NCBI GenBank assembly: GCA_040757115.1 | Contig: JBFLYA010000003.1 | Location: 1-58,260, forward strand | Direction: 5' to 3' | Source of the DNA: a bacterium | Lineage (GTDB): Bacteria > UBA9089 > CG2-30-40-21 > SBAY01 | Length of the DNA: 58,260 nucleotides | Shown here: positions 1,246-19,800 of the stretch, in pieces | Position numbering within the stretch: position 1 is the first letter of the stretch | How the letters are laid out: every line of letters starts with the position of its first letter | Program-made: the position numbers and the translations under genes | The notes under the pieces: generated by a model | The model's database searches: none | Told to the model about the DNA's origin: nothing | The model's input: the letters and a program-made list of their open reading frames with translations, nothing else

Positions 1246-1282
1246 CGGATTCTATAATACAAGGGAAGAAATGAACATGCAG

Positions 1283-1756: not shown

Positions 1757-1792
1757 AAGATTTTGGTAAAATATTCCCATAATGAGCAAAAG

Positions 1793-1910
1793 TTAATCAG
1801 ACTCATCTGTTCTGTTTTAATATCGATGCAGGTAAGAATCTTATTGTCCTTTAGACGGGACACCATAAGAACAAAAGTTGCTATTGTTGGTCTAACGCAA
1901 GATATTTCAT
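1793..1910 (-). pseudogene. IS110-family transposase N-terminal remnant
   Basis: With frameshifts reads MKYLALDQ-SNFCSYGV-RLKDNKILTCIDIKTEQMSLIN; homologous (inverted) to 36244-36316. Confidence 0.55.
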
Positions 1911-2646: not shown

Positions 2647-2696
2647 TGTCATTCTCTCCAAAGTTAATCATCTTTCAAAAATAGGTATTTCCGAAT

Positions 2697-4535
2697 TTAC
2701 TTTGTTTGAATATCTTCATCATCCTCAAGTAAAAGCAACTCATGGTCTTCTTTGGAATAATTATCTTCTTCAGATGGTTGTTGAGATAGATTCAATTTAT
2801 CTGGAGAAGAAGGTGGCTGTTCCCATTGTGGAGGAACCCCACCTATCCCTGGTGGATATTGACCTGGTTGTTGCGGATAATTTACTCCCCCTATTGGTTG
2901 CTGAGGGGGCGGAGGCGGATAATATCCACCTGCTCCTGATGGAGGTGGATATTGACCTGGTTGTTGTGACCAACCTCTTCCTCGAGTTGGCTGTTGAGGT
3001 GATGAAGGATGGGAGCGGATTCCTTTAATACGAAGTCCAGAACCACTATCCTGTGGTGGAGCTATAGGTGGTTGTTGTGGTGATGGAGGTGGATAAGGGG
3101 GCCATGGATGAGGGCCACCGTATTGTGGTGGATACTGACCCGGTGGAGGAGGTGGATAGTAAACTGGTTGTTGAGGTGGTTGAGGTCCATAATAAGTTCC
3201 TGAAGGCGGAGGAGGTGGACTACCCCATTGAGGAGGGCCACTATATGGCGGTGGATATTGGTCTGGTGGAGGTGGATAATTCCTTACCTGTGGTGAGGTT
3301 GATATATAAGTAGGTTGACCATAGGATGGTCGTTCTCCGATTCCATCAGAAGAAGAAACTCCATGTCTTATAGGTCTCCGAACAGGAGGTGCTATGGGAG
3401 GTATTAATCGTTCTCTCAGTAAAGTATAGATATGGGGAAGAAAGTAAAAGAATATAATGATGCCTAACATAATTGTAAAAGTTATCAGTCTCTCAGGTAT
3501 AATTTCCTGATGAAGAATTTGCTTGCGTTTTTCAGGATCTTCTGGTAGTATTAAACCAGGAATATTAGAAAAATTAATCTTATAAGGGGCTGACTGTACA
3601 TTGTTACTAAGTTGGACCTTATATTCTACAGCATCAACCAATTTTTTCAATTCAAGATTAGTTTTAAAAACAAGTTGATACTCCTTAATAACCCCTAATT
3701 GTATATCTTGATAAATTTGAATAAGTCTATCGCTTGAAGGAGCATAGTAGTAATCACCATGAGACAAAAAAGCAAAATCTTTCAAGATATTCTCATCTAT
3801 ACCAGAATCATTTCTATATCGGGGATTTCCAAATCCTATAGTATAAATAGGAATATTTACCTCTTTAATCTTTTCACAAACTGGATTCACATCTGTCAAA
3901 CCTGTTTCCCCTTCTCTAACTCTAACATCATTCTTTCCATCAGTCAATAAAATAACTATCTGTCTCCCTCCTTGTGGTGATATAGATTCTAATGCTCTGA
4001 TTGTAGCAGAGTATAGGGCTGTGTTATAAGTTGTTGCTTGAAGAAATTCTATTTGGTTTTTCAGTTTTTCCTTATCAGAATAGAATACTATCCTAGAAAC
4101 TTCAGGTACATAACTATTAAAAGCCATTATTGCTACTTTATCGTAGTCCCGCATATTTTCAATAAAATGATAAGCTGATTCTTTAGCAGCATCTATTTTT
4201 CTCTTCCCTTGACCACTATCATTAGCCATACTTCCACTTGTATCTATTGCCAATACTGCAATCAATGGAGTATTACTTTCTCCGATAATAGTTATCTCCT
4301 CGGGAGTTCCTATGTTCTTACCATTTTCAAAAAGAGTAAAATCTTCTTTGACTAATTTTTCACTATAAGGCTTTTTCTCCTCATTAAGAACGGAGACATA
4401 AGCTTTCCCATGAGGACAGTTATCCATTTTCATTTGTCGCAAATGAACTGATGAGATTTCCTCAGCTAAACATCGATTAATCATCATAAAAAGCATCACC
4501 ATTAATATTAAACTAGTTTTCCTTCTCAAAAACAT
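2697..4535 (-). CDS. Single-pass membrane protein: signal peptide, vWA domain, TM helix, long Pro/Gln/Tyr-rich tail
   Basis: N-terminal hydrophobic signal; MIDAS motifs DTSGSM, NTALY, LLTDG; TM LITFTIMLGIIIFFYFL; tail with repeated QYPP/PPPPP. Confidence 0.88.
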   Translation of the reverse strand: MFLRRKTSLILMVMLFMMINRCLAEEISSVHLRQMKMDNCPHGKAYVSVLNEEKKPYSEKLVKEDFTLFENGKNIGTPEEITIIGESNTPLIAVLAIDTSGSMANDSGQGKRKIDAAKESAYHFIENMRDYDKVAIMAFNSYVPEVSRIVFYSDKEKLKNQIEFLQATTYNTALYSATIRALESISPQGGRQIVILLTDGKNDVRVREGETGLTDVNPVCEKIKEVNIPIYTIGFGNPRYRNDSGIDENILKDFAFLSHGDYYYAPSSDRLIQIYQDIQLGVIKEYQLVFKTNLELKKLVDAVEYKVQLSNNVQSAPYKINFSNIPGLILPEDPEKRKQILHQEIIPERLITFTIMLGIIIFFYFLPHIYTLLRERLIPPIAPPVRRPIRHGVSSSDGIGERPSYGQPTYISTSPQVRNYPPPPDQYPPPYSGPPQWGSPPPPPSGTYYGPQPPQQPVYYPPPPPGQYPPQYGGPHPWPPYPPPSPQQPPIAPPQDSGSGLRIKGIRSHPSSPQQPTRGRGWSQQPGQYPPPSGAGGYYPPPPPQQPIGGVNYPQQPGQYPPGIGGVPPQWEQPPSSPDKLNLSQQPSEEDNYSKEDHELLLLEDDEDIQTK

Positions 4536-4541
4536 CTTTCT

Positions 4542-5489
4542 TCACCTCCTAATTTGTTCTCTTGGAGGAAGATTTGAAGAATCACCTGACGAACTTCTTA
4601 CTTTCAGAAATCTAAAGCAGCTACTGCCCAAACAAATAAGGTCTCCATGTTGAAGCTGTTGCTTTCTATCAATTTTATGACCATTTACATAAGTTTCCTC
4701 TCCTTGATTTGGTAGCTCATAAGGTGAGATAAAAAACTGTCTTCCTTCCCAAGAGATTGTTGCATGAAGGGAATCAATAAGTTCATCTCCGACTATTTGA
4801 ATGTTAGCCTTTGAGGAAAATCTACCTGGGTCTCCACTACCAATAATATTTCGAGCGTCACGGTAGAGAGACTTTTTATATTGCTCGCCATACTTTGATG
4901 ATTTATTCCCTTCTACCCCTTGCAAATAAGCATCTGACCCCAAGATACAAGCAAAACTTACTCCTGAAGCAATAGATGCTCCCAGAATAGTAATTCCCCA
5001 TGCCATAGAGACAGTTGGACCAAATATGGTACCCAGAAAGTGATGTATAAAACCTCCTATCAATCCTCCAATAGCTCCACCCAGAAGTCCATTAAGTGCC
5101 CGCCGCATTGACCTCCATCTTATCGCCTCTGCTATACTTACTAAAACACCTAAGGTGGACCATCCAAACATTCTTCCAAAATATGGAATTGTATCTTTGG
5201 TTGCTTCATACAGATAGAAAAATACTACTCCACCTAAACTACCACCAATGATTCCAGTTAACGCTCCCAATAGGAAATCACCAAGACAGGTAGTAATACC
5301 TGAATCCATAATTCTTTCAAGGGCACAAACAAAAGAACCAATGAATATTCCTACCAGACAACCCACAGCAACAGCGGTAATTAGTGGAGAAAATGAAAGG
5401 TCAACTATCCAACACGAGGTAAACCAGCCCAAGAGTCCTGCCAGACAACCTGTAACTCCAAAATAGTATATACTTCTAAAAAAAGTCAT
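4542..5489 (-). CDS. Multi-TM (GxxxG-rich) protein with C-terminal FHA-like domain
   Basis: About six Gly-rich hydrophobic helices, then IIGS...SLHATISW...TYVNG...LQHGDLICLG. Confidence 0.8.
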   Translation of the reverse strand: MTFFRSIYYFGVTGCLAGLLGWFTSCWIVDLSFSPLITAVAVGCLVGIFIGSFVCALERIMDSGITTCLGDFLLGALTGIIGGSLGGVVFFYLYEATKDTIPYFGRMFGWSTLGVLVSIAEAIRWRSMRRALNGLLGGAIGGLIGGFIHHFLGTIFGPTVSMAWGITILGASIASGVSFACILGSDAYLQGVEGNKSSKYGEQYKKSLYRDARNIIGSGDPGRFSSKANIQIVGDELIDSLHATISWEGRQFFISPYELPNQGEETYVNGHKIDRKQQLQHGDLICLGSSCFRFLKVRSSSGDSSNLPPREQIRR

Positions 5490-5492
5490 CTT

Positions 5493-7499
5493 TTATACAC
5501 CTCTTATTTGTGCTTCTAATTCCCTTATTTTTTGTCTTAAGGGAGCATTAGTCTTTGTTCTTTTGACTTCTTCTATAATTTCACTCAACCATTGAGGCAT
5601 TGTAAGAGGAAGCATACTGTAAAAATTAGTTGCCTCAAGAGCCAAAAGCGATTGATAATCATAGATAAGGGGGTCATGATTTGGTTTAAAATCAGCAATA
5701 GCATTTTTCAAATGGTCTATATTTACCTTTTTGGTCTTTGCATATTCAGCCGCGCGTCTTACAATGACCTCAATAGCGGAACCAGTCAAACCTTCTGTCT
5801 CAACGGTTACAAAATCAAAGTCAATACCATCATCATATTCTATTTTTACCTTCTTTTCCATCACTTCAAAGATACTCTTTCTATCCTCCTTATCTGGGGG
5901 TAAAAGGGGTATAACCTTATCAAATCGACGAAGCATAGCCTGGTCCAGAACATCTGGTCGATTAGTTGCGGCTACCCAAATTATCTTACCTCGATTAGAA
6001 TTATCCGACATAAATGTTAATATCTTAGCAAAAATACGCTGGCTTACTCCACTATCTCGACTATCTGTCATCCGAGAACCAAAAGCTTGATCAACTTCAT
6101 CTACAAATACTACTACTGGTGACAGTGCTAGTAAAATATCAAATACCTTAGAAAGATTCCGTTCACTTTCTCCTACCCACATACTGCGTATGTCCTTCAT
6201 TTTCACTAAGTTCATCGTTGCCTCTTTAGCCAGTGCTTCTGCCAGAATAGTTTTACCAGTCCCTGGAGGACCAACTAACAAAATTCCCTTAGGAAGTAAT
6301 TCTACTATGTCTAAAAGGATATTATCGTCTTTTATCTCTTTTTTTTGCTCAAAATATCGTTTTATATCAGCCACTTTCTCCTCAAGAAATTTCTTCACAT
6401 GGTCCAAACCACCTATCGAGTCAAAGCCATGTTTTGGCTCCATCACTTCTAACAAGTTATTACTTTCTGCTTCAATAATTTCCTTCTTCTTCTCTTTCAC
6501 TAAATCATAACTTACATTAATTCCCAGAGCTTTAGCAGAGTTAAAAAGATAATCTAAATCTTTAAGGTTAAACCCTGCGGTTATTTCAGCCAGTCCTTCC
6601 AATGTAGTCCCTTCTTCTAATTTTATTTTAGGCTTAATTTCTTCTAATGCCTTCACAACCTCTTCTAAAGTGGGAATATCTTCACCTGGCACCTTTTCCT
6701 TCTCTGATGTTGAAACTTCTTCTGAAGAGGGAGAACTTTTTTCTTCTGGCATATTTTTCTTTTCAGAGGAAAGAAATCTTAGAAATGCCAATCGTGTTTT
6801 TGCATCTGGTCGATCTATTTTAATAGCCTTACAGCCATAATGAGAATAGATGTCTGGATGGACTGCACCAAGATTTGGAGTTACTAATAGAACTATGTTA
6901 CCAGTATCCTGTCTAATCTTATAGTTCGAAGCCCACCGCTGTAATGTCTCAATCAAGATAATAGCATCTTTATCTTGAGTCCCTGCAGGCAGCAATTTAT
7001 CTACATATTCGATAACGATGGCAGTGCGATGTTCCTTTTGTAACAGAAGATGTTCAAAATTAGGAAAGACTTTCTTAGGGTCTCTGAATGTTTCATCCTG
7101 GGATTGCCTAGCTTGCCTCCCAAATCCTTCAACAACTTTGCGTGACTCTGTTGAAAGGTTTTTTAGTCTTTCTTCATCAGATTTTTCTGGTTCTTCTTCC
7201 TCACCAGCACCAAAAATAGGTAGAGCAAATCGTTTAAGTATGTCTTTTTTTGGCACTAAACCCTCTGGATAGGTAATTCCAGCTGACTGGCAATAGAATA
7301 AGATAATATCATACTTTAATGCCAGTCGCATGGTTAAAAATTCACGCAAGGATAATTTACCTTTTCCTGGCACATAGATAAAATCATTCACATTAAAGTA
7401 GAGAAGAAACATATGAGAGGCATTAGCATTATAGACATTATTAAGTTCTTCCAGCCAGGCAGGAGATTCCCAATTCTCTATAATATTAGTTTCTGACAT
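5493..7499 (-). CDS. AAA+ ATPase, classical clade (Cdc48/Ycf46-like, degenerate N-terminal module plus intact C-terminal module)
   Basis: FDSIGGLD, Walker A GPPGTGKT, pore loop MWVGESE, Walker B VFVDEVD, SRH AATNRPDVLDQAMLRRFD. Confidence 0.92.
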   Translation of the reverse strand: MSETNIIENWESPAWLEELNNVYNANASHMFLLYFNVNDFIYVPGKGKLSLREFLTMRLALKYDIILFYCQSAGITYPEGLVPKKDILKRFALPIFGAGEEEEPEKSDEERLKNLSTESRKVVEGFGRQARQSQDETFRDPKKVFPNFEHLLLQKEHRTAIVIEYVDKLLPAGTQDKDAIILIETLQRWASNYKIRQDTGNIVLLVTPNLGAVHPDIYSHYGCKAIKIDRPDAKTRLAFLRFLSSEKKNMPEEKSSPSSEEVSTSEKEKVPGEDIPTLEEVVKALEEIKPKIKLEEGTTLEGLAEITAGFNLKDLDYLFNSAKALGINVSYDLVKEKKKEIIEAESNNLLEVMEPKHGFDSIGGLDHVKKFLEEKVADIKRYFEQKKEIKDDNILLDIVELLPKGILLVGPPGTGKTILAEALAKEATMNLVKMKDIRSMWVGESERNLSKVFDILLALSPVVVFVDEVDQAFGSRMTDSRDSGVSQRIFAKILTFMSDNSNRGKIIWVAATNRPDVLDQAMLRRFDKVIPLLPPDKEDRKSIFEVMEKKVKIEYDDGIDFDFVTVETEGLTGSAIEVIVRRAAEYAKTKKVNIDHLKNAIADFKPNHDPLIYDYQSLLALEATNFYSMLPLTMPQWLSEIIEEVKRTKTNAPLRQKIRELEAQIRGV

Positions 7500-7502
7500 T
7501 AA

Positions 7503-9239
7503 TTAACTCCTTTCTTTTTCTTGAGGACTAATTTGTTTAACCATAGAGGTAGGAATAGTTTCTTCTAAAAGTTCTACAAAATGTGGGGAGATACAAACTT
7601 CACCTTGGGTATCTACCTCTACAATCCCTTTACCCTCAATCGAAAAAGTTTTGATAACCTTATTTTTACCAATAGTTTCTATTTCTATCTTATCATAGCC
7701 CATTTGGTGGAGTGATAGTAATATTCTATCTACTACTATATCTTGCAAAGTTCGCTCATCTTGAATAAGTTGTGGAATTGTTCCTGTTCCTTCTTTTACG
7801 CCAGTTACCTTATAATTTAAGTATATGCCTCGATTTTTTAACTCATCAAAAAAATGCTGTAACTCGGGTAGACAGGTAGCCTGACCTGCCTCATCGGATT
7901 TAAACCCATCGAGGTCATACAAAATTTCTCCCTCCGCGGAAACATTGACCCTAAAAATTTTCTCTCCTTTTATAGCTTTGTAATATATTCGCTCTTTTAT
8001 TTCAGACTTTTCAATTTCTGTATATTTCATTATTTGAAATACCTCTTCTATCTTTTGACTAATATGTGCCTGAAGATTTTGATTGAGGGTATTAATTGCC
8101 TTTTCTTTAATCTGATTAAATTTCTCCTGAGCATATTTTGCCTGGGACAGAGCATCATCTAATCTACCAGTGCGAAACATCTCTTGAGCTTCAGCTAAAG
8201 TCTGTTTTGCTTCCTCAAAGTTGTCTTTCAAAGTAAGTCTAACAATCTCTCTAACAGATTGAAGTGACTCTTCTTCACTCTTTTCTAACATTTCTATAAT
8301 AATCTCAGCATCTTCTACAGCTTTATCAAAATCTATTTGAATCTGGTTTGTTCTTTTTTCCCAGGTTTCTTTTTCTATCCTCAACCTATTACTTAAGTTA
8401 GACAAATGTTTAGTTATATCTTCCATGTGCTGCCAAACTATCGTGTAATTCTGGTCTTTCCAATTAGTGGTTATATCTCTAATCTCATCTTCTATTCTGC
8501 TAATCTCCTGTTGATTATTAGAAGGAAAAGAACCTGCAATTGTCTCTGTTTCTAATAAATCCAACTCCGCTTTCATTATCATTTCATGAATTTTCTCTGT
8601 CTGCTGATAGTGCTGTTCCTGAAGAACATAAGCTTTCTTCATTGTCTCTTGAAGCACACTTAAGGCTTCTTCTGCAAGACTATAAGAAGATGGAAATTCT
8701 CCTCTCTCTAAATTCTCTTTTCCTCGCTGTTCAATATTAACTATCCTATCTATTGCCTCTTTTTCTACAAATGGCAATCTCTGAACTTTTTCTAACATAA
8801 AATCCACTTCTTGCCAATTCATTGAAATTATTTGTTTAGCTGTTCTTTCCTCAGCCTCCTGGCCTAAAAATTTCAATTCTTCCCTAAATTGCTTTTCTTG
8901 CTGGAGATATTTCTGTCTTCTTTGTTCAATCTCCTGTTGCTCTTTAATAGCCTGTTTATGAGTCTGAAATCGTAATTTTTTATCTTTTCCTCGCTCTTTT
9001 TTGATAACTTCTGCTTTTTTCTGATGTTCTTTAATTAATTTAGTAACTCTCTGTTTTTCTTTCTCAAGCATCTTTTTTACTTTTTCTCTTCGTTTCTGAG
9101 CTATCTCTTGAGCGGTGTTATTAACTACTTCATATAACTTACAACCACAAAAAACCAATCCTTTGGCACCATAATAAACTCCGCTTACTGCTGCCCCTAA
9201 ACAAATTCCTATTACATCTGCTCCCCCTGCACTACTCAT
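7503..9239 (-). CDS. Long coiled-coil protein with C-terminal DUF2997-like segment
   Basis: E/K/Q-rich helical body; FRVNVSAEGEILYDLDGF...TCLPELQHFFDELKNRGI near the C-terminus; AAGGAG RBS; 3 bp from the ATPase start. Confidence 0.7.
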   Translation of the reverse strand: MSSAGGADVIGICLGAAVSGVYYGAKGLVFCGCKLYEVVNNTAQEIAQKRREKVKKMLEKEKQRVTKLIKEHQKKAEVIKKERGKDKKLRFQTHKQAIKEQQEIEQRRQKYLQQEKQFREELKFLGQEAEERTAKQIISMNWQEVDFMLEKVQRLPFVEKEAIDRIVNIEQRGKENLERGEFPSSYSLAEEALSVLQETMKKAYVLQEQHYQQTEKIHEMIMKAELDLLETETIAGSFPSNNQQEISRIEDEIRDITTNWKDQNYTIVWQHMEDITKHLSNLSNRLRIEKETWEKRTNQIQIDFDKAVEDAEIIIEMLEKSEEESLQSVREIVRLTLKDNFEEAKQTLAEAQEMFRTGRLDDALSQAKYAQEKFNQIKEKAINTLNQNLQAHISQKIEEVFQIMKYTEIEKSEIKERIYYKAIKGEKIFRVNVSAEGEILYDLDGFKSDEAGQATCLPELQHFFDELKNRGIYLNYKVTGVKEGTGTIPQLIQDERTLQDIVVDRILLSLHQMGYDKIEIETIGKNKVIKTFSIEGKGIVEVDTQGEVCISPHFVELLEETIPTSMVKQISPQEKERS

Positions 9240-9282
9240 TGGTATTCTCCTTTAAACTACATCTTGATTATTCAACAAATTT

Positions 9283-9529
9283 CGACCTGTGCGGTTAGGT
9301 TCAAATAAAATGCAAGAAGCAGATATTCAATGCTACAAACAGGTCGCTCCTACGGAGCTACAAACATATTGCTTTTGCGGAATGCTACAAACAGATTGCT
9401 CCTACGGAGCTTTATTTATATTAGCTCCAGAGGAGCGGTCTGTTTGTAGAAAGATTATATCCTTACAACATAATTAGCTCCAGAGGAGCGACCTGTGTAT
9501 TCTTTTTCTCACCCTAACCGCACAGGTGG
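9283..9529. mobile_element. 247-bp MITE carrying four REP-like palindromes
   Basis: TIRs CGACCTGTGCGGTTAGG / CCTAACCGCACAGGTGG; 8-bp target duplication ACAAATTT (9275-9282, 9530-9537); internal gctcctacggagc / gctccagaggagc hairpins. Confidence 0.88.
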
Positions 9530-9536
9530 ACAAATT

Positions 9537-10127
9537 TTATAAAGCTCCTTTTGTTGCCTCTTGAGAAATCCTCATCCTGTTCTTCAAATTTTTAACTTCA
9601 TCATTTAAGTCTTTGATTTGCTTTTTCAAGTTTTCATTTTCTGTCTTCAGTTTGTTACACTCATCTACAAGTTCATTATTGACCTTCTGTAAACTCTCCT
9701 TATCTGCATTCACTTTCTTAAGTATTTCTTCTATTTCTTTTACCTTATCTGCTTTCTGGTGATTTTGTTCTTCACTTTGTTGAAGTTTTTGAGATAAGAT
9801 TTCATTCTCCTTTGCTTTTTGAGAGATTAAACCTTCCTTTTCTTTTAATCTCCGCTGAACTTCATTAAGTTCAAATTGAAGGCTATTTATTTCTTGCCTA
9901 TGTTGTGTCTGTAGTATAGTAATCTGACTATTTAAAGAACGATTTTGAGTAGTTAGATTTTTTATTTCAGCCTTATAGCGTTCTATTTCAGTATGTAATT
10001 GTCGAATCTCTTTTTCCTGTCCTCCTAATAAGAGCGATGGGGTCCTACTCATATTAGAAACAGGAGTTGGTTTTCTTTTTCTTCGTACCCGTATATCTTT
10101 TATTTTCACACTCGAACTATTTTGCAT
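9537..10127 (-). CDS. Coiled-coil protein
   Basis: 196 aa; basic N-terminus followed by continuous heptad-like sequence; GGAG RBS. Confidence 0.75.
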   Translation of the reverse strand: MQNSSSVKIKDIRVRRKRKPTPVSNMSRTPSLLLGGQEKEIRQLHTEIERYKAEIKNLTTQNRSLNSQITILQTQHRQEINSLQFELNEVQRRLKEKEGLISQKAKENEILSQKLQQSEEQNHQKADKVKEIEEILKKVNADKESLQKVNNELVDECNKLKTENENLKKQIKDLNDEVKNLKNRMRISQEATKGAL

Positions 10128-10170
10128 GTGATTATCTCCATTAAATAGAACGGCATCGTTCCACCCACAT

Positions 10171-10305
10171 TTATCCTCCTATGAAATTATCCAATTTGGT
10201 GATTGTAACCTTAGCTACCTCACTCCACTTACCCTTTCTCTCATTATAGTCAATAGCTCTAATTCTATACTCAAGGATTTTCGTCAATCTGTTACCTCTG
10301 CCCAT
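10171..10305 (-). pseudogene. 44-codon ORF paralogous to the last FN3-like strands of the JAB protein, ending -FIGG
   Basis: MGRGNRLTKILEYRIRAIDYNERKGKWSEVAKVTITKLDNFIGG; 10201-10282 is a diverged direct repeat of 10571-10652. Confidence 0.5.
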
Positions 10306-10315
10306 TCTGCCCTAC

Positions 10316-12208
10316 TCATTTGTTTTCTTCTTTCAAACCTTCATTTCTCCTTACCCCCTCTTCACCACTATCGACATTCTGTAACGACTGGTCTTCCTTA
10401 TTTACATCTGATGGATTAGACATTTCTTCTTTTTTTACACTTGGTTGAAGTGGTTGTTGAGGTGAACCCTCATCCTTTTTTACGGTTGGACCTTTTTTTT
10501 TATCTTCCTTTTCTCTCTTTCTTGTGTTTGTATTCCAATTATTTTGCTGGCCCTTCTTTCTTTCTTCTTGGATTGTAACCTTAACCACCTTACTCCACTC
10601 CCCCTTTTCATCATTACAGCCAATAGTTCTAATTTTATACATAAGGTTTTTCTTTTGTTTTGGTGACCACTCATCGCTATATTCTTTTGAATTCCACGAA
10701 TATATATCTTTTAGTTTTTTAAAATCCTCCTCTCCCACTTTTACCTGAATTTCATAATATTTAACGGAACTATCTAAATTATCATTCCATTTCAAAATCA
10801 CAATTTTGCCATCTTTTTCCAGCTCAGCGTTGAATCCCGTAGGTGCTTCTAGTTTAGGTGGTATTGGTTCCTGTGGTATTGGTGACGAAAACTCTTTCGT
10901 ATAAGATTTATCATTTTGTAACTTGAGTGTTAAAGTATATTTGTAGTCTTTTCCCGGTAAGACATCTGTATCTTTATACTGCCCATTAATTATCTCTTGA
11001 TGACTAAGGGTTAGTGATTTATCATGCTCATTAGATGATGTTCTCTTTAAAATTCCGTCTTTGATTTCTTTTTCATCTACTCCTTTCAACTCCCATTTTA
11101 CAACTAATCCATCTTTAGATAGTTCGGGGCGCAATATATCAAATATATCATTAGAGACTGGATTACTTAGATTATCCTTTTTTTCTTGAGGGAATTCAAC
11201 AGGCCGTTCACTAGGGATTTCAACAGGTTGGAACATAAGGAAGATAAGGTAGATAAAGATGACAGCCATTACAATCATTCCACACCAAAGGATTATTTCC
11301 ATCACATCCTGGAAAGTAATTTCCTCCAGAGATTCAATAAGCTCACCCCAAATTTTTTTAATTGGATTAGGTTTTTTAGGACGGTATTGAGGTTCAGTTT
11401 TCTCATTAGATTGCCGATTTTGTCCTTTTGTAGGAATATTATTAACTCTGCGAGTTGAATAGTTATCCATGCAAGGGGAATAGTCATCCAGATAAAATTC
11501 AGCTCTACATTCTGAGTCTAACCTATCATTTTCCCAGATAAAGTATCCTGCTGTCTTCTTTTTAGGTTGAATAACCAAAGCTACATGCCAGGGCTGCATA
11601 AAATTGGTTTTCGCTAACTCTCGGTCAGGAGGAGAGAGTGAGATATCGTGACTTGGATGACTATGATACCAACCCACTTGTTTAAGATGTGAATACTTCT
11701 CTTGTTGTAGGTTTTTTACCCTATTTTTTTCTTGAGGGGTAAAGACAAAGTGGTCGTATCTGGCATTGTCATACTTCATAGGAATGGCTTCCTCAATATG
11801 AACCATATATGTTTCTCTTCCCATTTTCTTTACTGGAGGAGGCACATACCCTAACAAAATTCCTCCTGTTTCATTAGGAATTTTTTCTTGAGATTGAAAA
11901 AAGATTTTTTTGTAGACCCTCTTCACACAAAAAATTTCTACTGGAGAATTGGATACCTGCCAGGGAATCGTCTCGCCACTTATCTCTGTCTCCTTACTAT
12001 TTCGTATCCCTTTTATTCGTAGATTAGTAACATTTTGGTTCTCTTTCTCTTTACCCAATTCTTTTTCTTTCTCAGGGGGAGGTGACATAGCTGATTGAGA
12101 AGATACTTGACTCTGTCTGGGAATAGAAGGTTGTATAGATCCTATTTTATGTTCCCACTGTTCTAATCTTCTTTGTAACCAATTTTCTTCCTTTTCCTTC
12201 AAGTCCAT
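10316..12208 (-). CDS. JAB/MPN+ (Mov34) metallopeptidase with TM helix and C-terminal FN3-like domains
   Basis: NETGGILLG and JAMM motif GWYHSHPSHDISLSPPD (HxH-x7-S-x2-D); TM ILWCGMIVMAVIFIYLIFLMF; YKDTDVLPGKDYKY and APTGF...VILKW...YKIRT...GEWS. Confidence 0.88.
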   Translation of the reverse strand: MDLKEKEENWLQRRLEQWEHKIGSIQPSIPRQSQVSSQSAMSPPPEKEKELGKEKENQNVTNLRIKGIRNSKETEISGETIPWQVSNSPVEIFCVKRVYKKIFFQSQEKIPNETGGILLGYVPPPVKKMGRETYMVHIEEAIPMKYDNARYDHFVFTPQEKNRVKNLQQEKYSHLKQVGWYHSHPSHDISLSPPDRELAKTNFMQPWHVALVIQPKKKTAGYFIWENDRLDSECRAEFYLDDYSPCMDNYSTRRVNNIPTKGQNRQSNEKTEPQYRPKKPNPIKKIWGELIESLEEITFQDVMEIILWCGMIVMAVIFIYLIFLMFQPVEIPSERPVEFPQEKKDNLSNPVSNDIFDILRPELSKDGLVVKWELKGVDEKEIKDGILKRTSSNEHDKSLTLSHQEIINGQYKDTDVLPGKDYKYTLTLKLQNDKSYTKEFSSPIPQEPIPPKLEAPTGFNAELEKDGKIVILKWNDNLDSSVKYYEIQVKVGEEDFKKLKDIYSWNSKEYSDEWSPKQKKNLMYKIRTIGCNDEKGEWSKVVKVTIQEERKKGQQNNWNTNTRKREKEDKKKGPTVKKDEGSPQQPLQPSVKKEEMSNPSDVNKEDQSLQNVDSGEEGVRRNEGLKEENK

Positions 12209-12218
12209 ACTTCACCTC

Positions 12219-13079
12219 TTATATTTCAAGACTTTGCTTTTTAGTAGATTTCTCTGATGAATCCTTGTGCAATACTATTTTGACCCTTTTCTCTCCTAGT
12301 TTTAAAGGAAGTGTCAGCCCTACTCTACTTAAAGGAAAGAAGTCAGGATGTTTCTCTTTATAAGCCAAATACCATTCTTTGGCTTTAAGATTCATCCTCG
12401 GGTGGTCATCATCGAGGTTTACAGACCAATATTGTATCAATTTACAACACTGGACACAGGCATAAATCAAGTTACTGTCCAGTGGATACCATTCGAAGAA
12501 TAAGCATACATCCCTTTTCTTATCCATATTGGCATTAGGATGAAAAATATCGGTTACCGCGATTACAACTGGTCGAAGAATAGGATAATCTCGTGACAAT
12601 GTTAATCTAAGAATATGTTCATCTTCCTTTATTATTGGTTCTTTCTTATCGTCTAATCCACTAATTCCCTTTATCTTCATCAAAATAATTTCAATCTCTC
12701 CTGGAGATAGCCCCTTCACTCTTAGATGTTCAGGATTAGCCGTTGCTAACCGTAATAATCCAGCCCGGTCTTCTTGAACCCGGTTCGTGTTCTCATAGGC
12801 AGCTACTTCTGATGGGTCATATACTGAAATAACACTTCCTGGTGGGACACCCATGTTTGACAAACTATTATCAAGAAAGAGCTCCTCTTGATTCCAGAAA
12901 ACAGAGTACTGAACCTCTTGTCCCTTTTCATCATAGAGACGGATAGGATATTCTGTTCCTTGAGAGGTTCTGATAAGGTCTCTCAAGACATCTATCAAAG
13001 ATGTCTCATCATCCACTTCTACACTATACTCCTGCTGACCTTTTGGTGTAGTTACTACAAAAATAAAATTATTAATCAT
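12219..13079 (-). CDS. Ubiquitin-like (beta-grasp) domain fused to E2/UBC domain
   Basis: aa 1-94 YSVEVDDETSLIDVL...LDNSLSNMGVPPGSVISV; E2 motifs DYP..RP, IFHPN(180-182), Cys192, W and MNLKAKEWY. Confidence 0.85.
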   Translation of the reverse strand: MINNFIFVVTTPKGQQEYSVEVDDETSLIDVLRDLIRTSQGTEYPIRLYDEKGQEVQYSVFWNQEELFLDNSLSNMGVPPGSVISVYDPSEVAAYENTNRVQEDRAGLLRLATANPEHLRVKGLSPGEIEIILMKIKGISGLDDKKEPIIKEDEHILRLTLSRDYPILRPVVIAVTDIFHPNANMDKKRDVCLFFEWYPLDSNLIYACVQCCKLIQYWSVNLDDDHPRMNLKAKEWYLAYKEKHPDFFPLSRVGLTLPLKLGEKRVKIVLHKDSSEKSTKKQSLEI

Positions 13080-13110
13080 TAGTGATACACCTCCTTCAGA
13101 AGATTAGACT

Positions 13111-14226
13111 TTAACTTGACTTTTGAACGGAATAAGCAGGAAAATCCTCTTCAATCTTCCCCATTTCTCTCATTAAGAAGATTATCAAGATACCATTTGT
13201 TGGCTCCAAATCCAGAAGAGTTTCCGTTTTCTTTATGCTGAGTTTTCTTTCTGCTATTCTCTTTATCAAAGCGGGATTAATTGGTAATACGCAGTAGTTA
13301 TTGCCCACCTCTTTTATTTCAGGGATAAAAACTGGTAATAAATCTACTATTGATACATCTGCTGGCAGCCGTCCTGAATATAGTTTCAACTGAGCAAACA
13401 GAAATGAAACAGCAAATACTGTAACGATAGGTCGAAGAACTAATTCTTCACAAGGAAAGATATTCTGTTCGTAGAGTCGCTTTTCGTTGTCTATCCAAAT
13501 TCTTTTCTCTGGATGAACTAACCGATAATCTGTTATTCGAGATGCCTCTCCCTTATTCCATACTTCATTTGTTAATCTTAGGAAGTCAGGATGGTTAAAT
13601 ATTTGACTTACGGGCTGAAGACAATCTACATCAATCTCCACTCCTCCTTTTTCTCCAAATGTAGTTATCTTCATTTTAATAGACATAGGGTATGCAGTAA
13701 TACTCTCCCCTTCTTCTAAAACAAATGGAGTAGGGTCTTGTGCTTGAAGTAATTGTTTTCTACCCTTAACTAAAATGAAATTATTCCACTTAACATCTTG
13801 TTGTAGATATTGATACAGAGAATAGATAGGATACCTTCCATCCGTAGGGAAATATAATGAAAATTTTTCCCCCTGCCTATCTTTGCTAGTCCAATTAAGG
13901 ATCTCAACTACATCAGGGCTTTTAATCAATAGAAGATTTTCATGATGTCCCCTTAATTGTTCAAGAGAGAGTTTTAGATTTTTAACAATACCCCAGGAAT
14001 TACGGTTGGGAGAAAAAACAGCTACATTAGTTTGCGCTTCTCTCCACTTAATTTCAGCTAAAAGTTGTGTTTTTATGTCTTTCAAAGAGGTATTTGATGG
14101 AAACCCTCTTCTTTGTCTAAAAAGTGATGGTTGACCTTGCAACAACTCAATCCACTGGCACAGTTTATCTTCTTGTATTATCTTCCAATTACCTTCATAG
14201 GTGTATATATTAGGGAATAAATTCAT
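13111..14226 (-). CDS. Probable tandem ubiquitin-like (beta-grasp) repeat protein
   Basis: Up to four ~80-aa units: FPSNTSLKDIK..LSLEQL; FPTD..LEEGESITAYP; IDVDCLQPVSQI..RLYEQNIFPCEELVL; LPADVSIVDLL..TETLLDL. AGGAGG RBS. Confidence 0.55.
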   Translation of the reverse strand: MNLFPNIYTYEGNWKIIQEDKLCQWIELLQGQPSLFRQRRGFPSNTSLKDIKTQLLAEIKWREAQTNVAVFSPNRNSWGIVKNLKLSLEQLRGHHENLLLIKSPDVVEILNWTSKDRQGEKFSLYFPTDGRYPIYSLYQYLQQDVKWNNFILVKGRKQLLQAQDPTPFVLEEGESITAYPMSIKMKITTFGEKGGVEIDVDCLQPVSQIFNHPDFLRLTNEVWNKGEASRITDYRLVHPEKRIWIDNEKRLYEQNIFPCEELVLRPIVTVFAVSFLFAQLKLYSGRLPADVSIVDLLPVFIPEIKEVGNNYCVLPINPALIKRIAERKLSIKKTETLLDLEPTNGILIIFLMREMGKIEEDFPAYSVQKSS

Positions 14227-14250
14227 TTCTTATACCTCCTCTTCTTTCCT

Positions 14251-14922
14251 TTAACTCTTCGTCTTTTTATAACTTCTGAGATTAATTTTGCACTCAGGAT
14301 TGAGGCATCTCCAGCGATTAGGTACTCCCCAACAATCTATACATAAGATAGTATCACAGTTAGGGCACTTTCTTAAGTCCAAGCTCTGTCCATCGCTTCC
14401 ACTATTTCTTCGACAGAGTGGACATATATAGTTAGGTATCAATAGAGTATTACCAAGTGCCTCTGGTATAGGTTCAAATTGAGTAGATGGAATAGCTGTT
14501 CTGACTACTTTATCTTTTTTACCATACGCTGGGAAAAATATAATCGTGAGCACCCCTATTATTACTCCTACCGCACTTGCTATTAAAATCAGAGAATGCT
14601 CATCAATGAATTTGTTTAATTCTACTTGAGAGATTTGTAGAATCAAATAAAAGAACAATAGAAAATTTCCTATTCCACAACCTATACCTTGCACTAGAAC
14701 AGTTAGAAGTCTCCACCTTTGAACCGACCTCAGTAGAAGAGCAATAACACATCCTACTACAAATTGGAGAATACCAAATACTATCCATGGAACCTTCACC
14801 CAAAAGAGTATCCCTCCTAATATTGCACCAAATAAGCTTATCACTCCTGAAACACCAAAATTTCTAATCTTATCCATATTCTGTTTTAATCTTCTCATGA
14901 ACAGATTTTTTCTCCTTTTCAT
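14251..14922 (-). CDS. Multi-TM membrane protein with C-terminal RING-like zinc finger (putative E3)
   Basis: About four TM helices, then C-x2-C-x15-C-x2-C-x4-C-x2-CW-x7-C-x4-C (aa 167-211); ATGA overlap with the E1 stop. Confidence 0.75.
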   Translation of the reverse strand: MKRRKNLFMRRLKQNMDKIRNFGVSGVISLFGAILGGILFWVKVPWIVFGILQFVVGCVIALLLRSVQRWRLLTVLVQGIGCGIGNFLLFFYLILQISQVELNKFIDEHSLILIASAVGVIIGVLTIIFFPAYGKKDKVVRTAIPSTQFEPIPEALGNTLLIPNYICPLCRRNSGSDGQSLDLRKCPNCDTILCIDCWGVPNRWRCLNPECKINLRSYKKTKS

Positions 14923-16187
14923 TCAAAATTCATAACCTCCATTTCATCACCAGTCAATTCATAGAATTTACTTATACTTTTCTTTCCATCATCTATTACT
15001 GCCTCTAAGATATCCAGTTGACGCAGTCCTCCTTGTGTTAAGGTCAAATTAAGGAAATCAACATTTTCATCTAACTCACTCACAGACTTAGCTATTTCTT
15101 GAGGTGTCCCACAATGAGAGCAACTTTGATGCTCTATAAATACATACGGGGATTGATAAACCTTCTCAGTCTTTTTGCAATTAGGACAGGAGGCAGAGAT
15201 TACCAAATCATACCAAAGACTAATTCTTGCCTTCTTACCCAAATCCTTTTTAACTTTTTCAAGTAACTCGCCAATAGTGGTAGAATTAGAGTTAAACTCT
15301 TTAACCTCAATTATATCTTTTTCTGGGATAGGGGAACGAATTTGATGAATAAGACACTTTGGGTTACGGCGACGAGTAAATACTTCCATTTTATGGTCTT
15401 GTGTATCTATGTGAATAATCTTATTCAATAATGGTGTTATTTCTTCATTATTCATTAAAATTTTAAGTCCTTCTTGTACCTGAAGAGCACCAATAAGAGA
15501 AGCCATCATAGGTGTAGAAGGGACAAATCCTCTTTTTTCAGATTCTCTCTCAATTTCAGCGCAGATAACCCCTCTGCCTGTTCCTTTTTCCAGAATCTCC
15601 TTTACCATCTCTGATGATAGAGAACAAGCATAACAAGCTCCTGCAGGAACATCAAAAACTGTTACTGCTCCCCGTAAGACATTAACATCATTTAACCCGG
15701 CATCAATCCATGGTTTTTTAACCCGGATACAGGCATCGTTTAAAATAATACGGGGCAGGCGGCTGTCAAAATCACAAAAAATAAGGTCCATTCTACGCAA
15801 TACTCCTAAACCAAGTGAAGCAATATTCCCATGAAAAGTAGCTACTTTAACATCAGGATTAACTTCCTTTATTTGCTCAGCTACTACCTCTACTTTAGAA
15901 CGGCCAATATCTCTTTGGCGAAACATTATAGACCTGGTTAAATTAGAGAGCTCTATAATTTCCTTATCAACAAGTAAAATCTTACCACAGCCAATAAGAG
16001 CTAAGTTTTTAGCCACTTCATTGCCAATGGCTCCTACTCCACCTATCAGAGCCGTACTATTCTTAACCACACCTTGTTTCCACCCGTGGATAGTTTCTAA
16101 TCTAGAATATCTTTCTTTATCCTCATCCTCTTTATCTTTTTTACTGATAGAAATTTGCTTTTTGAGTGTTTTGGGTATTATATCCAT
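14919..16187 (-). CDS. ThiF/MoeB-family E1-like adenylyltransferase with C-terminal zinc-ribbon extension
   Basis: RYSR, GGVGAIGNEVAKNLAL, ELSNLTR, GRSK, CYAC, putative catalytic Cys in VICAE, PKCLIH, CPNC/CSHC. Start placed at ATG 16187 (GAGG RBS, downstream of the promoter). Confidence 0.93.
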   Translation of the reverse strand: MDIIPKTLKKQISISKKDKEDEDKERYSRLETIHGWKQGVVKNSTALIGGVGAIGNEVAKNLALIGCGKILLVDKEIIELSNLTRSIMFRQRDIGRSKVEVVAEQIKEVNPDVKVATFHGNIASLGLGVLRRMDLIFCDFDSRLPRIILNDACIRVKKPWIDAGLNDVNVLRGAVTVFDVPAGACYACSLSSEMVKEILEKGTGRGVICAEIERESEKRGFVPSTPMMASLIGALQVQEGLKILMNNEEITPLLNKIIHIDTQDHKMEVFTRRRNPKCLIHQIRSPIPEKDIIEVKEFNSNSTTIGELLEKVKKDLGKKARISLWYDLVISASCPNCKKTEKVYQSPYVFIEHQSCSHCGTPQEIAKSVSELDENVDFLNLTLTQGGLRQLDILEAVIDDGKKSISKFYELTGDEMEVMNFE

Positions 16188-16207
16188 TTGTGCCTCATTA
16201 TGAAAAT

Positions 16208-16236
16208 ATTTTACCACAAATTTTGTCCTTTGTCAA
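16208..16236 (-). promoter_or_regulatory. Sigma-70 promoter of the Ubl operon
   Basis: TTGACA-17 bp-TAAAAT with extended -10 TG, 20 bp upstream of the E1 ATG. Confidence 0.8.
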
Positions 16237-16538
16237 CAAAAAATTCGGCTTTTTAAATCCAAAAATTAGTATCGAAAATCTGCTCGATTAGGACAAAATC
16301 ATAAAAATGGACATTGCCAATAGTGATTTTGGACACACTTATCCCACGGAAGGTAATTGAAAGGTCATAAAAGAAAGAACTAAAAAGCAGGTGAGAACTA
16401 CGACGGGTATCATCTTCCATGCCAGGAACCATTATAAAACCATCTCTTAGCCCCTGGCATATTCTTCAGGGCTTCCTCAATATCTTCTTTTTTGGGTGGT
16501 ATCTGAAAATAACGCTAATAGTGAAATTTATGCAGATT

Positions 16539-16735
16539 TGGTGTAAAAAAGAGGATAAGGAGATAAGGGCGATATGGAGATAAGATAATAGAAATAGATT
16601 GAAATTTATAGAAATAGGTAGAAATTGATTGTGGAAAACAACAAATTTCCATAAATTTCTATTAGTTTCTACTAATTTCAATTTTTTTAATAATATCTCC
16701 CTATCTCCTTAATCTCCACATCTCCTTTTCGGACA
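16539..16735. repeat. Long imperfect palindromic repeat element
   Basis: Purine-rich arm (gataaggagataagggcgatatggagat...gaaattt) mirrored by a pyrimidine-rich arm (aaatttc...atctccctatctccttaatctcc); related element at 49688-49810. Confidence 0.6.
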
Positions 16736-16805
16736 CTATTTCAACCTTTATGCTAGATTAAGACACCACCAAATATTTCAATACTCATAAGATTCAAGCA
16801 GTAGA

Positions 16806-16838
16806 GAGAGGCAGGTCTAAAATAAAAACCTGCCTCTC
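16806..16838 (-). terminator. Hairpin downstream of the surface-protein gene copy (terminator or stability element)
   Basis: 11-bp perfect stem ~35 bp after the stop codon; no clear U-tract. Confidence 0.5.
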
Positions 16839-16872
16839 CCAACAATAAAGGGGTGAGAAAAAGGACATATTT

Positions 16873-19800
16873 TTATTCCCAGAATCTACCTGTTAGTCTT
16901 AGGTAAAATCCGCTGGCTGAATAACTATCATCAAGTATCTCACCATCTTTGTATTCGATGAGGTTATATCCTAAGACAAATTTAAAGTGGCTGTTAAATC
17001 CAAAACCTAACTCTAAGATAGGATTTAGCTTATAGTCATTGGTCAAATGTTGATGTAGAATTCTATACCCGCCGGTTATATCCAACCTTTCGTTAATATT
17101 ATAAGTTAATCTACCCATTATAAGGTCAATATGAGAAATAATATCCTCTACCTCTATCCTCCTCATCGCATACTTTCCCAAAAGGCTCCATTTATTAGTT
17201 GGAACATAGATAGATTCTAAGGAAGCAATAGCACTTTTATTACTAAACTCATATTTACTCAATAAATTGAATTTATTAGTCTGAGGAGGTCTGTAGGCTA
17301 ATGCAAGTAACAGCTTTGATTCGCAAGAATCAGTTTCTGTCCCGCTATCCTCTTTTTTACTCTTCTCATAGGTATATTTCAAGTAGGTTGTTAATCCGTT
17401 AAGGAATTTCTGTTTTAAGTCTGCAATTAGTAATGCGGTGGAATCATTAACATTTCCCTCTCTGGAGTAAGAATATTTTAGAGAAGAGGTTAAGTCATTA
17501 TTAATTTTTTGGTTAAGTTCAACTTCTCCTGAAATAGTCTCCTCTTTATCCAATTCTTTCCTAATTTCGTTTTTAGCTGACAATTTTGTTTTATCAGTTG
17601 GTGTAAAGTTCACCCCAAATGAATTAGTGGTGGAATCAGTTATCTTCCCTGCACCAATCTCTTTTTCTGCATTATTTGCCGCGGAAATGACTATCTTTGG
17701 ATGTGGTGAATAATCTATTCCAATAGTAGTAGCTATGGATTTGGTCTTCGTCCCTTCGATGTAGTCAGCCTTCCAACCAAGTGCACAGGAGGTATTTAGC
17801 GATACCAATTCAAATAGCTTAGTTATTGCTCCTATGGTAAGGTGATGTTCTCTAAGAAGATGTTTGCCATGTGCCATTTTATTAGTTAAATCATATTGGA
17901 TAGAAGGTGATACCATATCATATTCTGATGTTAATTTGAGGCTAATGTCATGAGTTATCGTATCTAAATCACGATTAATAAAATTATCAGAATCTGTAAG
18001 GCTGTATTTTAATCCAAAATCATGCCTACCTATTGAACCTCTATCTCCTAAAGTAAACATCTGTTTACGGCTCTTGTGAATTTGGTTACTCACCTTATTT
18101 TCTTCTTGAAAATTTGCAAAGAATGTAGAATTATCAAGCTCCTGTTTAAACCCCAGTCCAAATATATCAGTTTTTGTCTTATTTTTCTTGGGCTCATTAG
18201 TAGTTATCTTCTTTTGAACATATAAGGCTTTATCAGTCATTAGCTTGTAATCAACTCGTGAGCCGTATTCTCGGATATCCTTTTGAGTAGTAAGATTAGT
18301 GATGTCATAAAACTCTGGTCCATACTGGTTAAAATCGTCTCTTTCTTTATCAGCAGTAGCCTCAATTTTATTAGAGAAGTTAGCTCCAATTTGATGATAA
18401 AAGGTCTTAACCTTGCATCTATCGTTTGAGTGAGAAGATAAGGTTTCTATAAAAGAGGCAGAGTTGTTAACTTTTGGATTTAATAGTTCTAAGTCTCCAT
18501 CGGTCTGGGCATATTCACCCTTAATAGTAAATTCTTTGCAGGGATTAAAAGAACTATCTAACCCATAAAGGTGGTAGTCAGTTGGAGACTGTTCCTCTTT
18601 GATATAAGTTGTACCTACTTCTAAGCTCTTATGTGGTTTTGTTACTCCACGAAACCCATAAATGGCATGTTTGTAATCTGCACCTATGGGAATATATTCA
18701 TAAATCACTACAATATAATATCTGATTCCTCCACTTTCGATTAAAGGGACAGGCTCTTCAAATATCAACCTTCCTGTATCATAATCCAGGGAATAGTCCT
18801 TATCTTTTTCTTTCTCTATAGTGGCAAAAACTTGTAAGTTTTTCTCATCCCGGGTTTGGATTTTAATCTTTTCACTTCCATCCACAATTGGGCAATGTGT
18901 AAGATAGTAAGGGCCACAAATTCCCCTCCCAGGTATATCATCCCGAGCACTAACTTGTCTTGTAGAGGCACCAAATACAGTAATCCTGGAATTGGCGATA
19001 TGTTTTTCTATCTTTGCTCCGGTAAGACTTCTATGATATGTTGATAATTTATTTTCTCCTAATGCGGTTGAATAATCGCCATAAAGAAGCTCTAAATCCT
19101 TAGATTGTAATTTTAGAAAGATAGGGTCAGAAGATGGAGTGTTATTAACGACTTTACTATCATCACCATAGATTGGATAGTAATCATCTGGATTAGCCGG
19201 AGAGGATAATTTATCCTTGCGAGTTTTCTTAGTATCAAGTGAAGTAGTAAGTTGATATTTATCTTTTAACTTAGTTTTTAAGTAAAAGGCTAAGCATCCT
19301 TTATATCTTGCACTATTTCCATACTTTTTACGAAATGCCTTTATATTTCCAGTGACCGTATCTTCTTCCATTTCAAGCTCTGCTAATCCAATAAAAACAG
19401 GCTTATCTGTGTAAGTAGCAGAGTATCTTTTATCCGCTGCCCTTAAGATACCAAAGTCTAACTTTGCCATTCCATGAGGAGAAAGATCAATAAATTGTGG
19501 CTTAGTAGTACTTAAAGAATACTCATCAGATAAGGTATTTATGTCAATCATTAGCAGGTGACGACCTGGTTTAACCGCTGGAATTGAGTATCTACCTTCA
19601 TCATCAGTAATTACACTCATCCCATTTTCCATAAGGATGCTTACATTACCAATTCCCGCCTCTCTATCTTGCTGTATCCCATCACCATTAGTATCCTCAT
19701 ATACCTTGCCAATTATAATCCCATGCTCTCTAAATACTCCATCTTTAATCCTGACTATTGCAAATACATTAGTTACTACTTTCTCCCCTTTTTCAGCAGT

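Follow-up and report, generated by a model that had tools for sequence, protein, structure and literature searches.

The stretch of DNA analysed here, called the window in the following, comprises 58,260 nucleotides (nt) of a bacterium (GTDB lineage Bacteria; UBA9089; CG2-30-40-21; SBAY01), namely positions 1 to 58,260 of contig JBFLYA010000003.1 in GenBank assembly GCA_040757115.1. It contains an operon of a known kind, a prokaryotic E1-E2-RING-JAB-Ubl operon (Ubl, ubiquitin-like protein), with a link to the vWA/AAA conflict systems. What appears to be new includes the architecture of its JAB peptidase. In detail, the gene at 10316..12208, a whole open reading frame (ORF) with stop codon, encodes a protein of 630 residues in which Pfam detects a JAB domain, and which continues through one transmembrane (TM) helix into two domains resembling fibronectin type III (FN3). 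All operon features lie on the minus strand.

Domain content and topology of the JAB protein

The protein begins with an N-terminal extension (residues 1-85; 11954..12208), consisting of a helix at residues 3-23 in the AlphaFold2 (AF2) model and of low-complexity sequence thereafter. A pattern search located the motif LRIKGIR in this extension, at residues 63-69 (12002..12022). The catalytic JAB/JAMM domain follows (residues ~86-240; 11489..11953) and was delimited by Pfam, motif and alignment: Prok-JAB (PF14464) covers residues 96-214 with 32.6 bits against a cut-off of 25, and JAB/MPN (PF01398) covers residues 103-195 with 25.7 bits against 22.5. The JAMM set is complete, with E113 (in ETGGILLG) and H182-x-H184-x7-S192-x2-D195, and none of these five residues varies in an alignment with 32 of the closest relatives. 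By sequence, the best solved JAB match is the Rpn11-like ubiquitin-processing peptidase of Caldiarchaeum (PDB 6fjv, E 7e-4).

A linker (residues 241-301; 11306..11488), carrying a K/R-rich stretch at residues ~277-284 and a helix directly before the membrane segment, connects the JAB domain to the single TM helix (residues 302-326; 11231..11305). This segment is the one hydrophobic peak of the protein (25 residues, Kyte-Doolittle 2.85) and was modelled by AF2 as a helix at residues 299-326, with a predicted local distance difference test (pLDDT) of 87-94 by block. Behind it lie FN3-like domain 1 (residues ~350-447; 10868..11161), FN3-like domain 2 (residues ~454-547; 10568..10849) and a C-terminal tail (residues 548-630; 10319..10567), which is K/E/Q-rich and of low complexity as judged from its sequence and the AF2 model.

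The two FN3-like domains were recognised by different means. The single-sequence AF2 model of the whole protein has a mean pLDDT of 40.7 and is usable for the TM helix and domain 1 only; in it, domain 1 forms a seven-strand sandwich (block pLDDT 66-86). A fold search with this domain among 48,161 solved chains gave 1oww as the best match (Z 10.7, root-mean-square deviation 2.4, 89/93 residues), and FN3 entries made up the majority among the 50 matches listed. Domain 2, which has no confident AF2 model, was detected with our own fn3 profile, for which 74 repeats annotated as fn3 by Pfam were taken from giant bacterial proteins; residues 454-530 score 26.0 bits (E 4.6e-10 when a single sequence is searched). 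With the same profile domain 1 scores just 2.3 bits, and Pfam fn3 (PF00041) matched neither domain, either in the whole protein or in cut-outs at E<=10. Thus, the layout proposed in a first-pass annotation, made from the DNA letters alone, was borne out: an intact JAMM motif stands N-terminal to one TM helix, by Pfam scores above cut-offs, five catalytic residues and one hydrophobic peak, and two FN3-like domains follow it, one by fold and one by profile.

An alternative assembly of the probable source run, from the same sample and for this reason not independent, holds positions 9500-13100 in one contig with 0 differences. The fusion of JAB, TM helix and FN3-like domains is therefore not a joining error of the present assembly.

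As to topology, the protein is likely oriented with its N-terminus inside and its C-terminus outside. In this orientation the N-terminal extension and the JAB domain would be cytoplasmic, one helix would cross the inner membrane, and the FN3-like domains and the charged tail would be periplasmic. The first argument for this comes from the LRIKGIR motif, which the vWA protein of the same operon also bears in its tail. Behind a signal peptide, that protein contains a single TM helix, so its tail should be cytoplasmic, and the motif common to both proteins places the JAB side in the cytoplasm and the FN3-like domains outside. Further support comes from the lack of an N-terminal signal sequence in the JAB protein, since an N-terminal part of 300 residues without signal peptide is unlikely to be exported by the Sec route, and from the family as a whole: among 84 JAB relatives with a single TM helix, K+R were more numerous on the JAB side in 44 and on the C-terminal side in 25, with 15 ties. 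A cytoplasmic JAB and external FN3-like domains, as first proposed, thus appear likely.

The basic stretch that had been placed on the N-terminal side of the helix is indeed present; it lies 20-30 residues upstream rather than adjoining the helix, and the local charge bias is weak. Within 35 residues of the helix, K+R count 6 on the N-terminal and 3 on the C-terminal side, and within 15 residues they count 0 and 1. This weak bias, together with the lysine-rich C-terminal tail, could be taken to mean that the topology is the opposite one with cytoplasmic FN3-like domains, or that the segment is not a membrane span at all. Given the length and strong hydrophobicity of the segment, its modelling as one helix, the improbable export of the N-terminal part, the shared motif and the K+R bias of the family, we consider this highly unlikely.

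Membrane anchoring among related JAB proteins

Ubl-system JABs of prokaryotes had initially been taken to be small soluble proteins as a rule, which does not hold in this clade. Among the best 149 HMMER representatives, to which all clade counts refer, the JAMM motif is present in 138. A predicted TM helix follows the JAB domain in 90 of these 138; 63 have a single TM helix, and 19 have a single TM helix with a tail of at least 150 residues. Likewise, the JAB alignment was used to retrieve 80 genomic loci, most of them from Chloroflexota according to their titles, and in these a TM helix follows the JAB domain in 36/106 JAMM-bearing JAB ORFs. Membrane tethering of JAB peptidases is common in this clade.

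The FN3 pair, on the other hand, is so far unique among the relatives examined. Our fn3 profile, with matches counted outside giant fn3 proteins, gave none of significance in 107 locus JAB ORFs and the 149 representatives (best E 0.63). Pfam, run on 40 of the 149, detected JAB domains only, bar one Prok-RING_1+JAB fusion and a few repeat matches. The tails of other TM-bearing JABs are varied and include coiled coils, Pro/Thr-rich linkers and small beta-rich parts; comparison among tails was marginal, with FN3-like domain 1 matching the representative P0065 at E 0.03, and the tail of the JAB at a syntenic locus (L046, described below) matching the same P0065 at E 0.02. We also observed that the six closest relatives listed (P0002, P0004, P0005, P0007, P0008, P0010) all have two JAB domains; in five of them two JAMM-bearing JABs are followed by a TM segment, and P0007 has no predicted TM segment. 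In P0078 a Prok-RING_1 domain is fused to JAB.

No full-length relative of the protein was recovered in any of several searches. A word-index search of 5.8 billion proteins matched the protein only to itself, as was also the case for the orphan protein p371 of the operon. HMMER on 1.84 billion representatives gave no full-length relative, the best non-self match (E 1.2e-26) lying on JAB domains, and in 40 related genomes the matches cover residues ~80-265 only, in ORFs of ~200-300 residues. At the DNA level, positions ~2100-16100 are without counterpart in 12 relatives, including one of the same genus, except for short repeats. As there is no close relative, no ectodomain residue can be called conserved. 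Viral contigs yielded one weak JAB relative among 11 pattern matches and therefore no sign of phage origin.

The operon, its relatives and a shared tail motif

The ten genes of the operon run head to tail with gaps of mostly 3-30 nt. The first encodes an E1 of the ThiF family (432 residues; 14919..16217; ThiF 4.8e-46), which among solved structures is closer to the eukaryotic proteins UBA7/UBA1 (~2e-21) than to MoeB or ThiF (~1e-15 to 1e-16). It is followed by a protein of 223 residues with four TM helices (14251..14922), whose C-terminal eight-Cys domain (residues 167-212) is RING-like: it has no Pfam match and matches weakly (11.4 bits, E 2e-5 for two sequences) to our own profile of 56 RING domains from related operons. 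The orphan p371 comes next (13111..14226); Atlas look-alikes hint at a tandem beta-grasp protein (poly-Ubl), as a lead only. The Ubl-E2 fusion (286 residues; 12219..13079) consists of a YukD-like Ubl at residues 8-86 and an E2 part at residues ~100-257, with an HPN...C site that aligns to UBE2G1; Pfam UQ_con stays below its cut-off (17.5 against 27). The JAB gene lies directly behind, after a gap of 10 nt, and is the only JAB gene in a Pfam scan of the ten operon proteins.

Downstream of the JAB gene, two coiled-coil proteins are encoded. The first, cc196 (196 residues; 9537..10127), bears VKIKDIR at residues 7-13, and the second, cc578 (578 residues; 7503..9239), is helical/coiled-coil. The AAA+ ATPase (668 residues; 5493..7499) has an N-domain (residues 1-345) and an active Cdc48/VAT-like AAA domain (residues 406-530; Pfam AAA 2.5e-35), and its closest solved structures are VAT and Cdc48 (5e-68). 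A multi-TM protein with a C-terminal FHA domain (TM-FHA; 315 residues; 4542..5489; FHA 3e-09) precedes the last protein (612 residues; 2697..4535), which comprises a signal peptide, a vWA domain (Pfam 1.5e-16), a TM helix and a Pro-rich tail with LRIKGIR at residues 501-507. The metal-ion-dependent adhesion site (MIDAS) of the vWA domain is intact, and 27 sequences all retain D98, S100, S102, T172 and D199. A complex prediction for the vWA ectodomain (residues 28-345) and the FN3 ectodomain (residues 335-552) scored 0.01 against a mark of 0.32, a value that is informative neither way.

Related loci place this gene set in context. Among the 80 loci, E1 is found in 63, E2 in 57, a YukD-like Ubl in 48, RING in 44, TM-FHA in 31 and vWA in 27, and none of the 80 has the AAA protein, cc578, cc196 or p371. 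A recurrent order is E1, RING-TM, Ubl-E2 (~285 residues), Ubl (88 residues), JAB, TM-FHA and vWA-TM; its JAB is soluble with ~220 residues, and a JAB of ~370 residues sometimes precedes. Many relatives have two JAB genes or two JAB domains.

One locus, L046, is syntenic with the core of the window operon. It has E1, a 4-TM zinc protein, Ubl-E2, a JAB-TM-tail protein, TM-FHA and vWA, with identities of 35, 23, 32, 33, 33 and 27% in this order and a G+C content of 57.5% against ~36% here. Its JAB protein (657 residues, one TM helix, tail of 253 residues) is the sister of the window JAB in the JAB-domain tree (support 0.90). Atlas look-alikes of the L046 tail belong to Ig_J/fn3 clusters (0.81-0.83; TM-score, the template modelling score, 0.47), which is at lead level only. 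The vWA protein of L046 (11615-13519) has 634 residues and ends in a region of ~80 residues with two FRVRG repeats, which by eye looks like a beta-grasp domain. At another locus (L032), a protein of 1049 residues with about six FN3-like repeats (8883-12032) is encoded a few genes away from a related E1-Ubl-E2-RING-JAB-vWA cluster.

This genome also holds another, compact operon adjoining pdxJ, which is shared with relatives and comprises E1, (Prok-RING_1), YukD-like Ubl, E2 and one or two JABs. Identity to it is 35% for the window E1, 33% for the E2 part and 34% for the JAB part, and the window operon therefore represents a divergent second copy; relative to this operon as conserved in the lineage, the three are paralogues at 31-36%. 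The pdxJ-linked operon is conserved within the taxonomic family and order; the genome's own copy lies on another contig (L015, 4625-8208), further copies are in L017, L018 and L019, and a STAND NTPase with TPRs follows the L018 copy.

AAA and cc578 belong to a module of their own. The AAA N-domain recurs in 13 AAA relatives, and in 14 relatives its consensus FLLHGNVHD looks like a degenerate P-loop region. Homologues of cc578 follow AAA-family relatives in 2/80 metagenome loci (L109, L111), and at L108 (2863-13022) an AAA relative stands beside a radical SAM gene and E1, E2 and JAB. Among 25 genomes of the phylum the N-domain occurs in one, this genome itself. PADLOC gave IetA for the AAA protein (2.3e-33), an assignment which we rejected because it reflects the shared AAA domain. 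The PADLOC/NCBIfam defence models for JAB and E1-E2 gave weak matches only (27.5 bits; 32 bits against a cut-off of 320).

The motif used above for the topology proved to be specific to the operon. The genome as a whole (7095 stop-to-stop frames of at least 80 residues) has three matches to the pattern [LV][RK]IK[GD]IR, all within this operon: in the N-terminal extension of the JAB protein, in the vWA tail (3015-3035) and at the N-terminus of cc196 (10089-10109), all on the minus strand. In related loci, a looser pattern (R-[IV]-[KR]-hydrophobic-[KRTH]) lies almost always in C-terminal tails. It was found in 20/27 vWA proteins (19 of them within the last 70 residues), 11/20 Ubl-E2 fusions, 15/65 E1 proteins, 8/106 JABs and 11/1030 other ORFs, and in none of 56 RING, 31 FHA and 43 Ubl proteins. 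Motif-bearing enzymes are present in 20/37 loci with FHA or vWA against 3/43 loci without. As a whole, this distribution suggests a candidate motif of the FHA/vWA-linked subtype, serving either for docking or as acceptor lysine.

These comparisons bear on the role of the ectodomain. The first-pass annotation had proposed a receptor-like one-component peptidase, in which an extracytoplasmic cue could gate Ubl processing or deconjugation. In such a mechanism, a periplasmic ligand or partner at the FN3-like domains would change oligomeric state or orientation and thereby switch the JAB domain on or off. The arrangement of an extracytoplasmic domain, a single TM helix and a cytoplasmic enzyme fits such a receptor. 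The operon has a second periplasmic module, the vWA domain with invariant MIDAS, and a cytoplasmic FHA domain, which are typical signalling parts, and the sister operon L046 also encodes a JAB-TM-tail protein. Nevertheless, FN3 is a generic scaffold in which no ligand site can be read from the sequence, the tails of other TM-bearing JABs are heterogeneous, and no conserved ectodomain residues can be named. Moreover, the soluble JAB of ~220 residues is the form present in many related operons that share the TM-FHA and vWA-TM partners, so the ectodomain does not seem to be needed for the core reaction. We therefore favour an accessory role for the ectodomain and consider a receptor function rather unlikely.

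Possible function and comparison with known systems

On balance, we consider it probable, by a small measure, that the protein is a membrane-tethered JAB peptidase for Ubl processing, Ubl removal or both, with the TM helix and FN3-like domains placing the enzyme in a complex. The JAB domain would act as an Rpn11-like zinc isopeptidase of a membrane-embedded bacterial Ubl conjugation system, beside E1, E2 and the 4-TM RING-like ligase. It may trim Ubl precursors, namely the Ubl-E2 fusion and perhaps p371, to give a conjugatable end, and/or it may strip Ubl from modified proteins at the membrane. The helix and the FN3-like domains would mainly hold the enzyme together with TM-FHA and the periplasmic vWA domain.

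The junction between Ubl and E2 is informative in this respect. The free Ubls at related loci terminate in ...TAG, in some cases followed by a few additional residues, and this end is kept at the Ubl-E2 junction in 20/20 related fusions; L046 keeps AAG. Such a junction is the form to be expected of a precursor that JAB processes, and cleavage of the Ubl-E2 fusion by JAB appears plausible across the family. Bil and Bub operons are known to include both Ubls with several beta-grasp domains and Ubl-E2 fusions (PMC11601603, as far as the text was available). The window operon has no separate small Ubl gene. Its fused Ubl is a weak match (9.6 bits), and p371, which has no family assignment in Pfam, sits about where the Ubl gene would be.

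Several points weigh against this interpretation. The fused Ubl of the window ends in AAY, without glycine, and for this reason may be neither cleaved nor conjugated. The multi-ubiquitin look-alikes of p371 are at lead level only (Atlas at most 0.86, TM-scores 0.23-0.39), and its AF2 model has a pLDDT of 35.6. For the JAB part (residues 24-294), pLDDT stays below 50 in the single-sequence model. To this come the charge counts of 0 and 1 directly beside the helix. Peptidase activity and substrate are predictions, and the present evidence does not separate an anchor from a sensor.

The missing glycine, together with the two JAB genes or domains of many relatives, could also be explained if the JAB domain acted on a target other than Ubl, such as the tails of operon proteins or a peptide, or if it served as a scaffold beside another, active subunit as in MPN+/MPN- pairs. 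Here, however, all catalytic residues are present, the gene follows the Ubl-E2 gene at 10 nt as the only JAB gene of the operon, and across the family there is a tight linkage with E1, E2 and Ubl. Such a role thus seems very unlikely to us, and processing or removal of Ubl remains the function that we prefer.

Prokaryotic E1-E2-RING-JAB-Ubl operons of the YukD type were reportedly described by Burroughs, Iyer and Aravind in 2011 in Mol Biosyst (cited in PMC7159879 and PMC3417536). The window operon resembles them in its ThiF-type E1, its UBC-type E2 with HPN...C, its putative RING-like zinc domain (treble-clef), its YukD-like Ubl and its JAB with full JAMM motif. It differs from them in several respects: a TM helix and two FN3-like domains are joined to its JAB, its Ubl is fused to E2 and lacks a terminal glycine, its RING-like domain follows four TM helices, and TM-FHA, a secreted vWA-TM protein, AAA+ and coiled-coil proteins are added.

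In eukaryotes, endoplasmic-reticulum-associated degradation (ERAD) employs a multi-TM RING ligase, an E2, Cdc48/p97 and a deubiquitinase. By analogy, the multi-TM RING-like protein, E2, Cdc48/VAT-like AAA+ and JAMM peptidase of the operon could be likened to these parts at a membrane. The analogy is one of parts and does not extend to homology of the membrane parts or to a proteasome, and the AAA+ protein is confined to the window operon among the JAB loci compared.

A second known kind is formed by the FtsH-type ternary systems, which contain vWA, a two-domain classical AAA+, helical proteins, Ubl-E2, E1, RING and JAB, and for which JAB has been proposed to free the Ubl (Kaur 2020, PMC7159879). 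Their AAA+ combines an inactive or degenerate N-terminal with an active C-terminal classical AAA domain (PMC7159879). The window operon is similar to the complex variant of these systems in having vWA, Ubl-E2, E1, a RING-like domain, JAB, helical proteins and a classical-clade AAA+, and the L108 locus with its radical SAM gene adds to this likeness. Pfam detected no MoxR, no beta-propeller/ClpN on vWA and no EAD1/caspase effector in the ten operon proteins, the only MoxR trace being bpMoxR at E 0.023 on the classical AAA domain. In further contrast to FtsH-type systems, the vWA protein here is secreted and membrane-anchored, and TM-FHA and a TM-bearing JAB are added.

Bil and Bub operons (Gong 2024, PMC11601603) likewise have a JAB/JAMM peptidase with E1 and E2, as far as the text was available; membrane anchoring is not mentioned for them in these parts, where 'membrane' has 0 occurrences. 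A protein of JAB-TM-FN3 type was found neither in literature listings and abstracts nor in the available parts of Kaur 2020, Aravind 2012 and Gong 2024, with Burroughs 2011 outside this scope, and in the available part of Iyer 2006 neither 'fn3' nor 'fibronectin' occurs. Besides the JAB-TM-FN3x2 architecture, two further features appear to be new, namely the shared tail motif and the way in which the FHA/vWA membrane subtype is merged with the module of AAA and helical proteins.

Taking these parts together, one could picture the operon as a trans-envelope sensing machine built on Ubl chemistry. The vWA domain with its MIDAS and the FN3-like domains would detect an event at the envelope (phage contact, damage or a partner protein), the balance between RING/E2 tagging and JAB untagging of lysines in the shared R-I-K-type tails of the system's own proteins would shift, and the Cdc48-like AAA+ would extract or remodel tagged membrane proteins. 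We regard this series of steps as distinctly improbable when all are taken jointly. If true, bacteria would possess a counterpart of ERAD and of ubiquitin signalling under receptor control.

Eukaryotic ubiquitination has its closest prokaryotic relatives in the bacterial E1-E2-E3-JAB systems, most of which have no known target or trigger. The present operon puts all its non-enzymatic parts in the membrane, with vWA and FN3 facing outward and FHA, the RING-like domain and JAB facing inward in the likely topology, and it adds a Cdc48-like unfoldase. The Ubl-E2 junction offers a defined candidate cleavage site, and the shared tail motif a candidate docking or acceptor site. Should activity depend on the ectodomain, this would be the first bacterial Ubl pathway connected to the cell exterior; if the ectodomain only anchors, the protein would still be a clear example of the widespread membrane tethering of JABs.

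Finally, some minor observations concern the regulation and the surroundings of the operon. Promoter-like sites (51 against 46.7 in shuffled sequence) and terminator-like sites (10 against 9.2) were not above expectation, Rfam had no match in window positions 1-20000, and the public runs listed include no RNA holder. The best promoter-like site (16208-16236; 11/12, with TG) overlaps the GTG that was assumed to begin E1, and E1 may therefore start at an ATG ten codons downstream. A repeat of ~265 nt (9273-9539) stands between cc196 and cc578, and many copies of it exist in this genome as well as in relatives belonging to three genera. This repeat shows strong self-complementarity (RNA fold -118.6 kcal/mol, z -13.1) and looks like an element of the MITE (miniature inverted-repeat transposable element) type inserted in the operon. 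Another short repeat lies upstream of E1 (16495-16782; ~190 nt, core 16541-16729); this genome and one of the same genus contain dozens of copies, which are 92-99% identical. Further upstream, positions 16866-20000 and 36952-40086 form a 98% identical duplication that covers most of a large surface protein gene of the DUF11/SdrD_B type.

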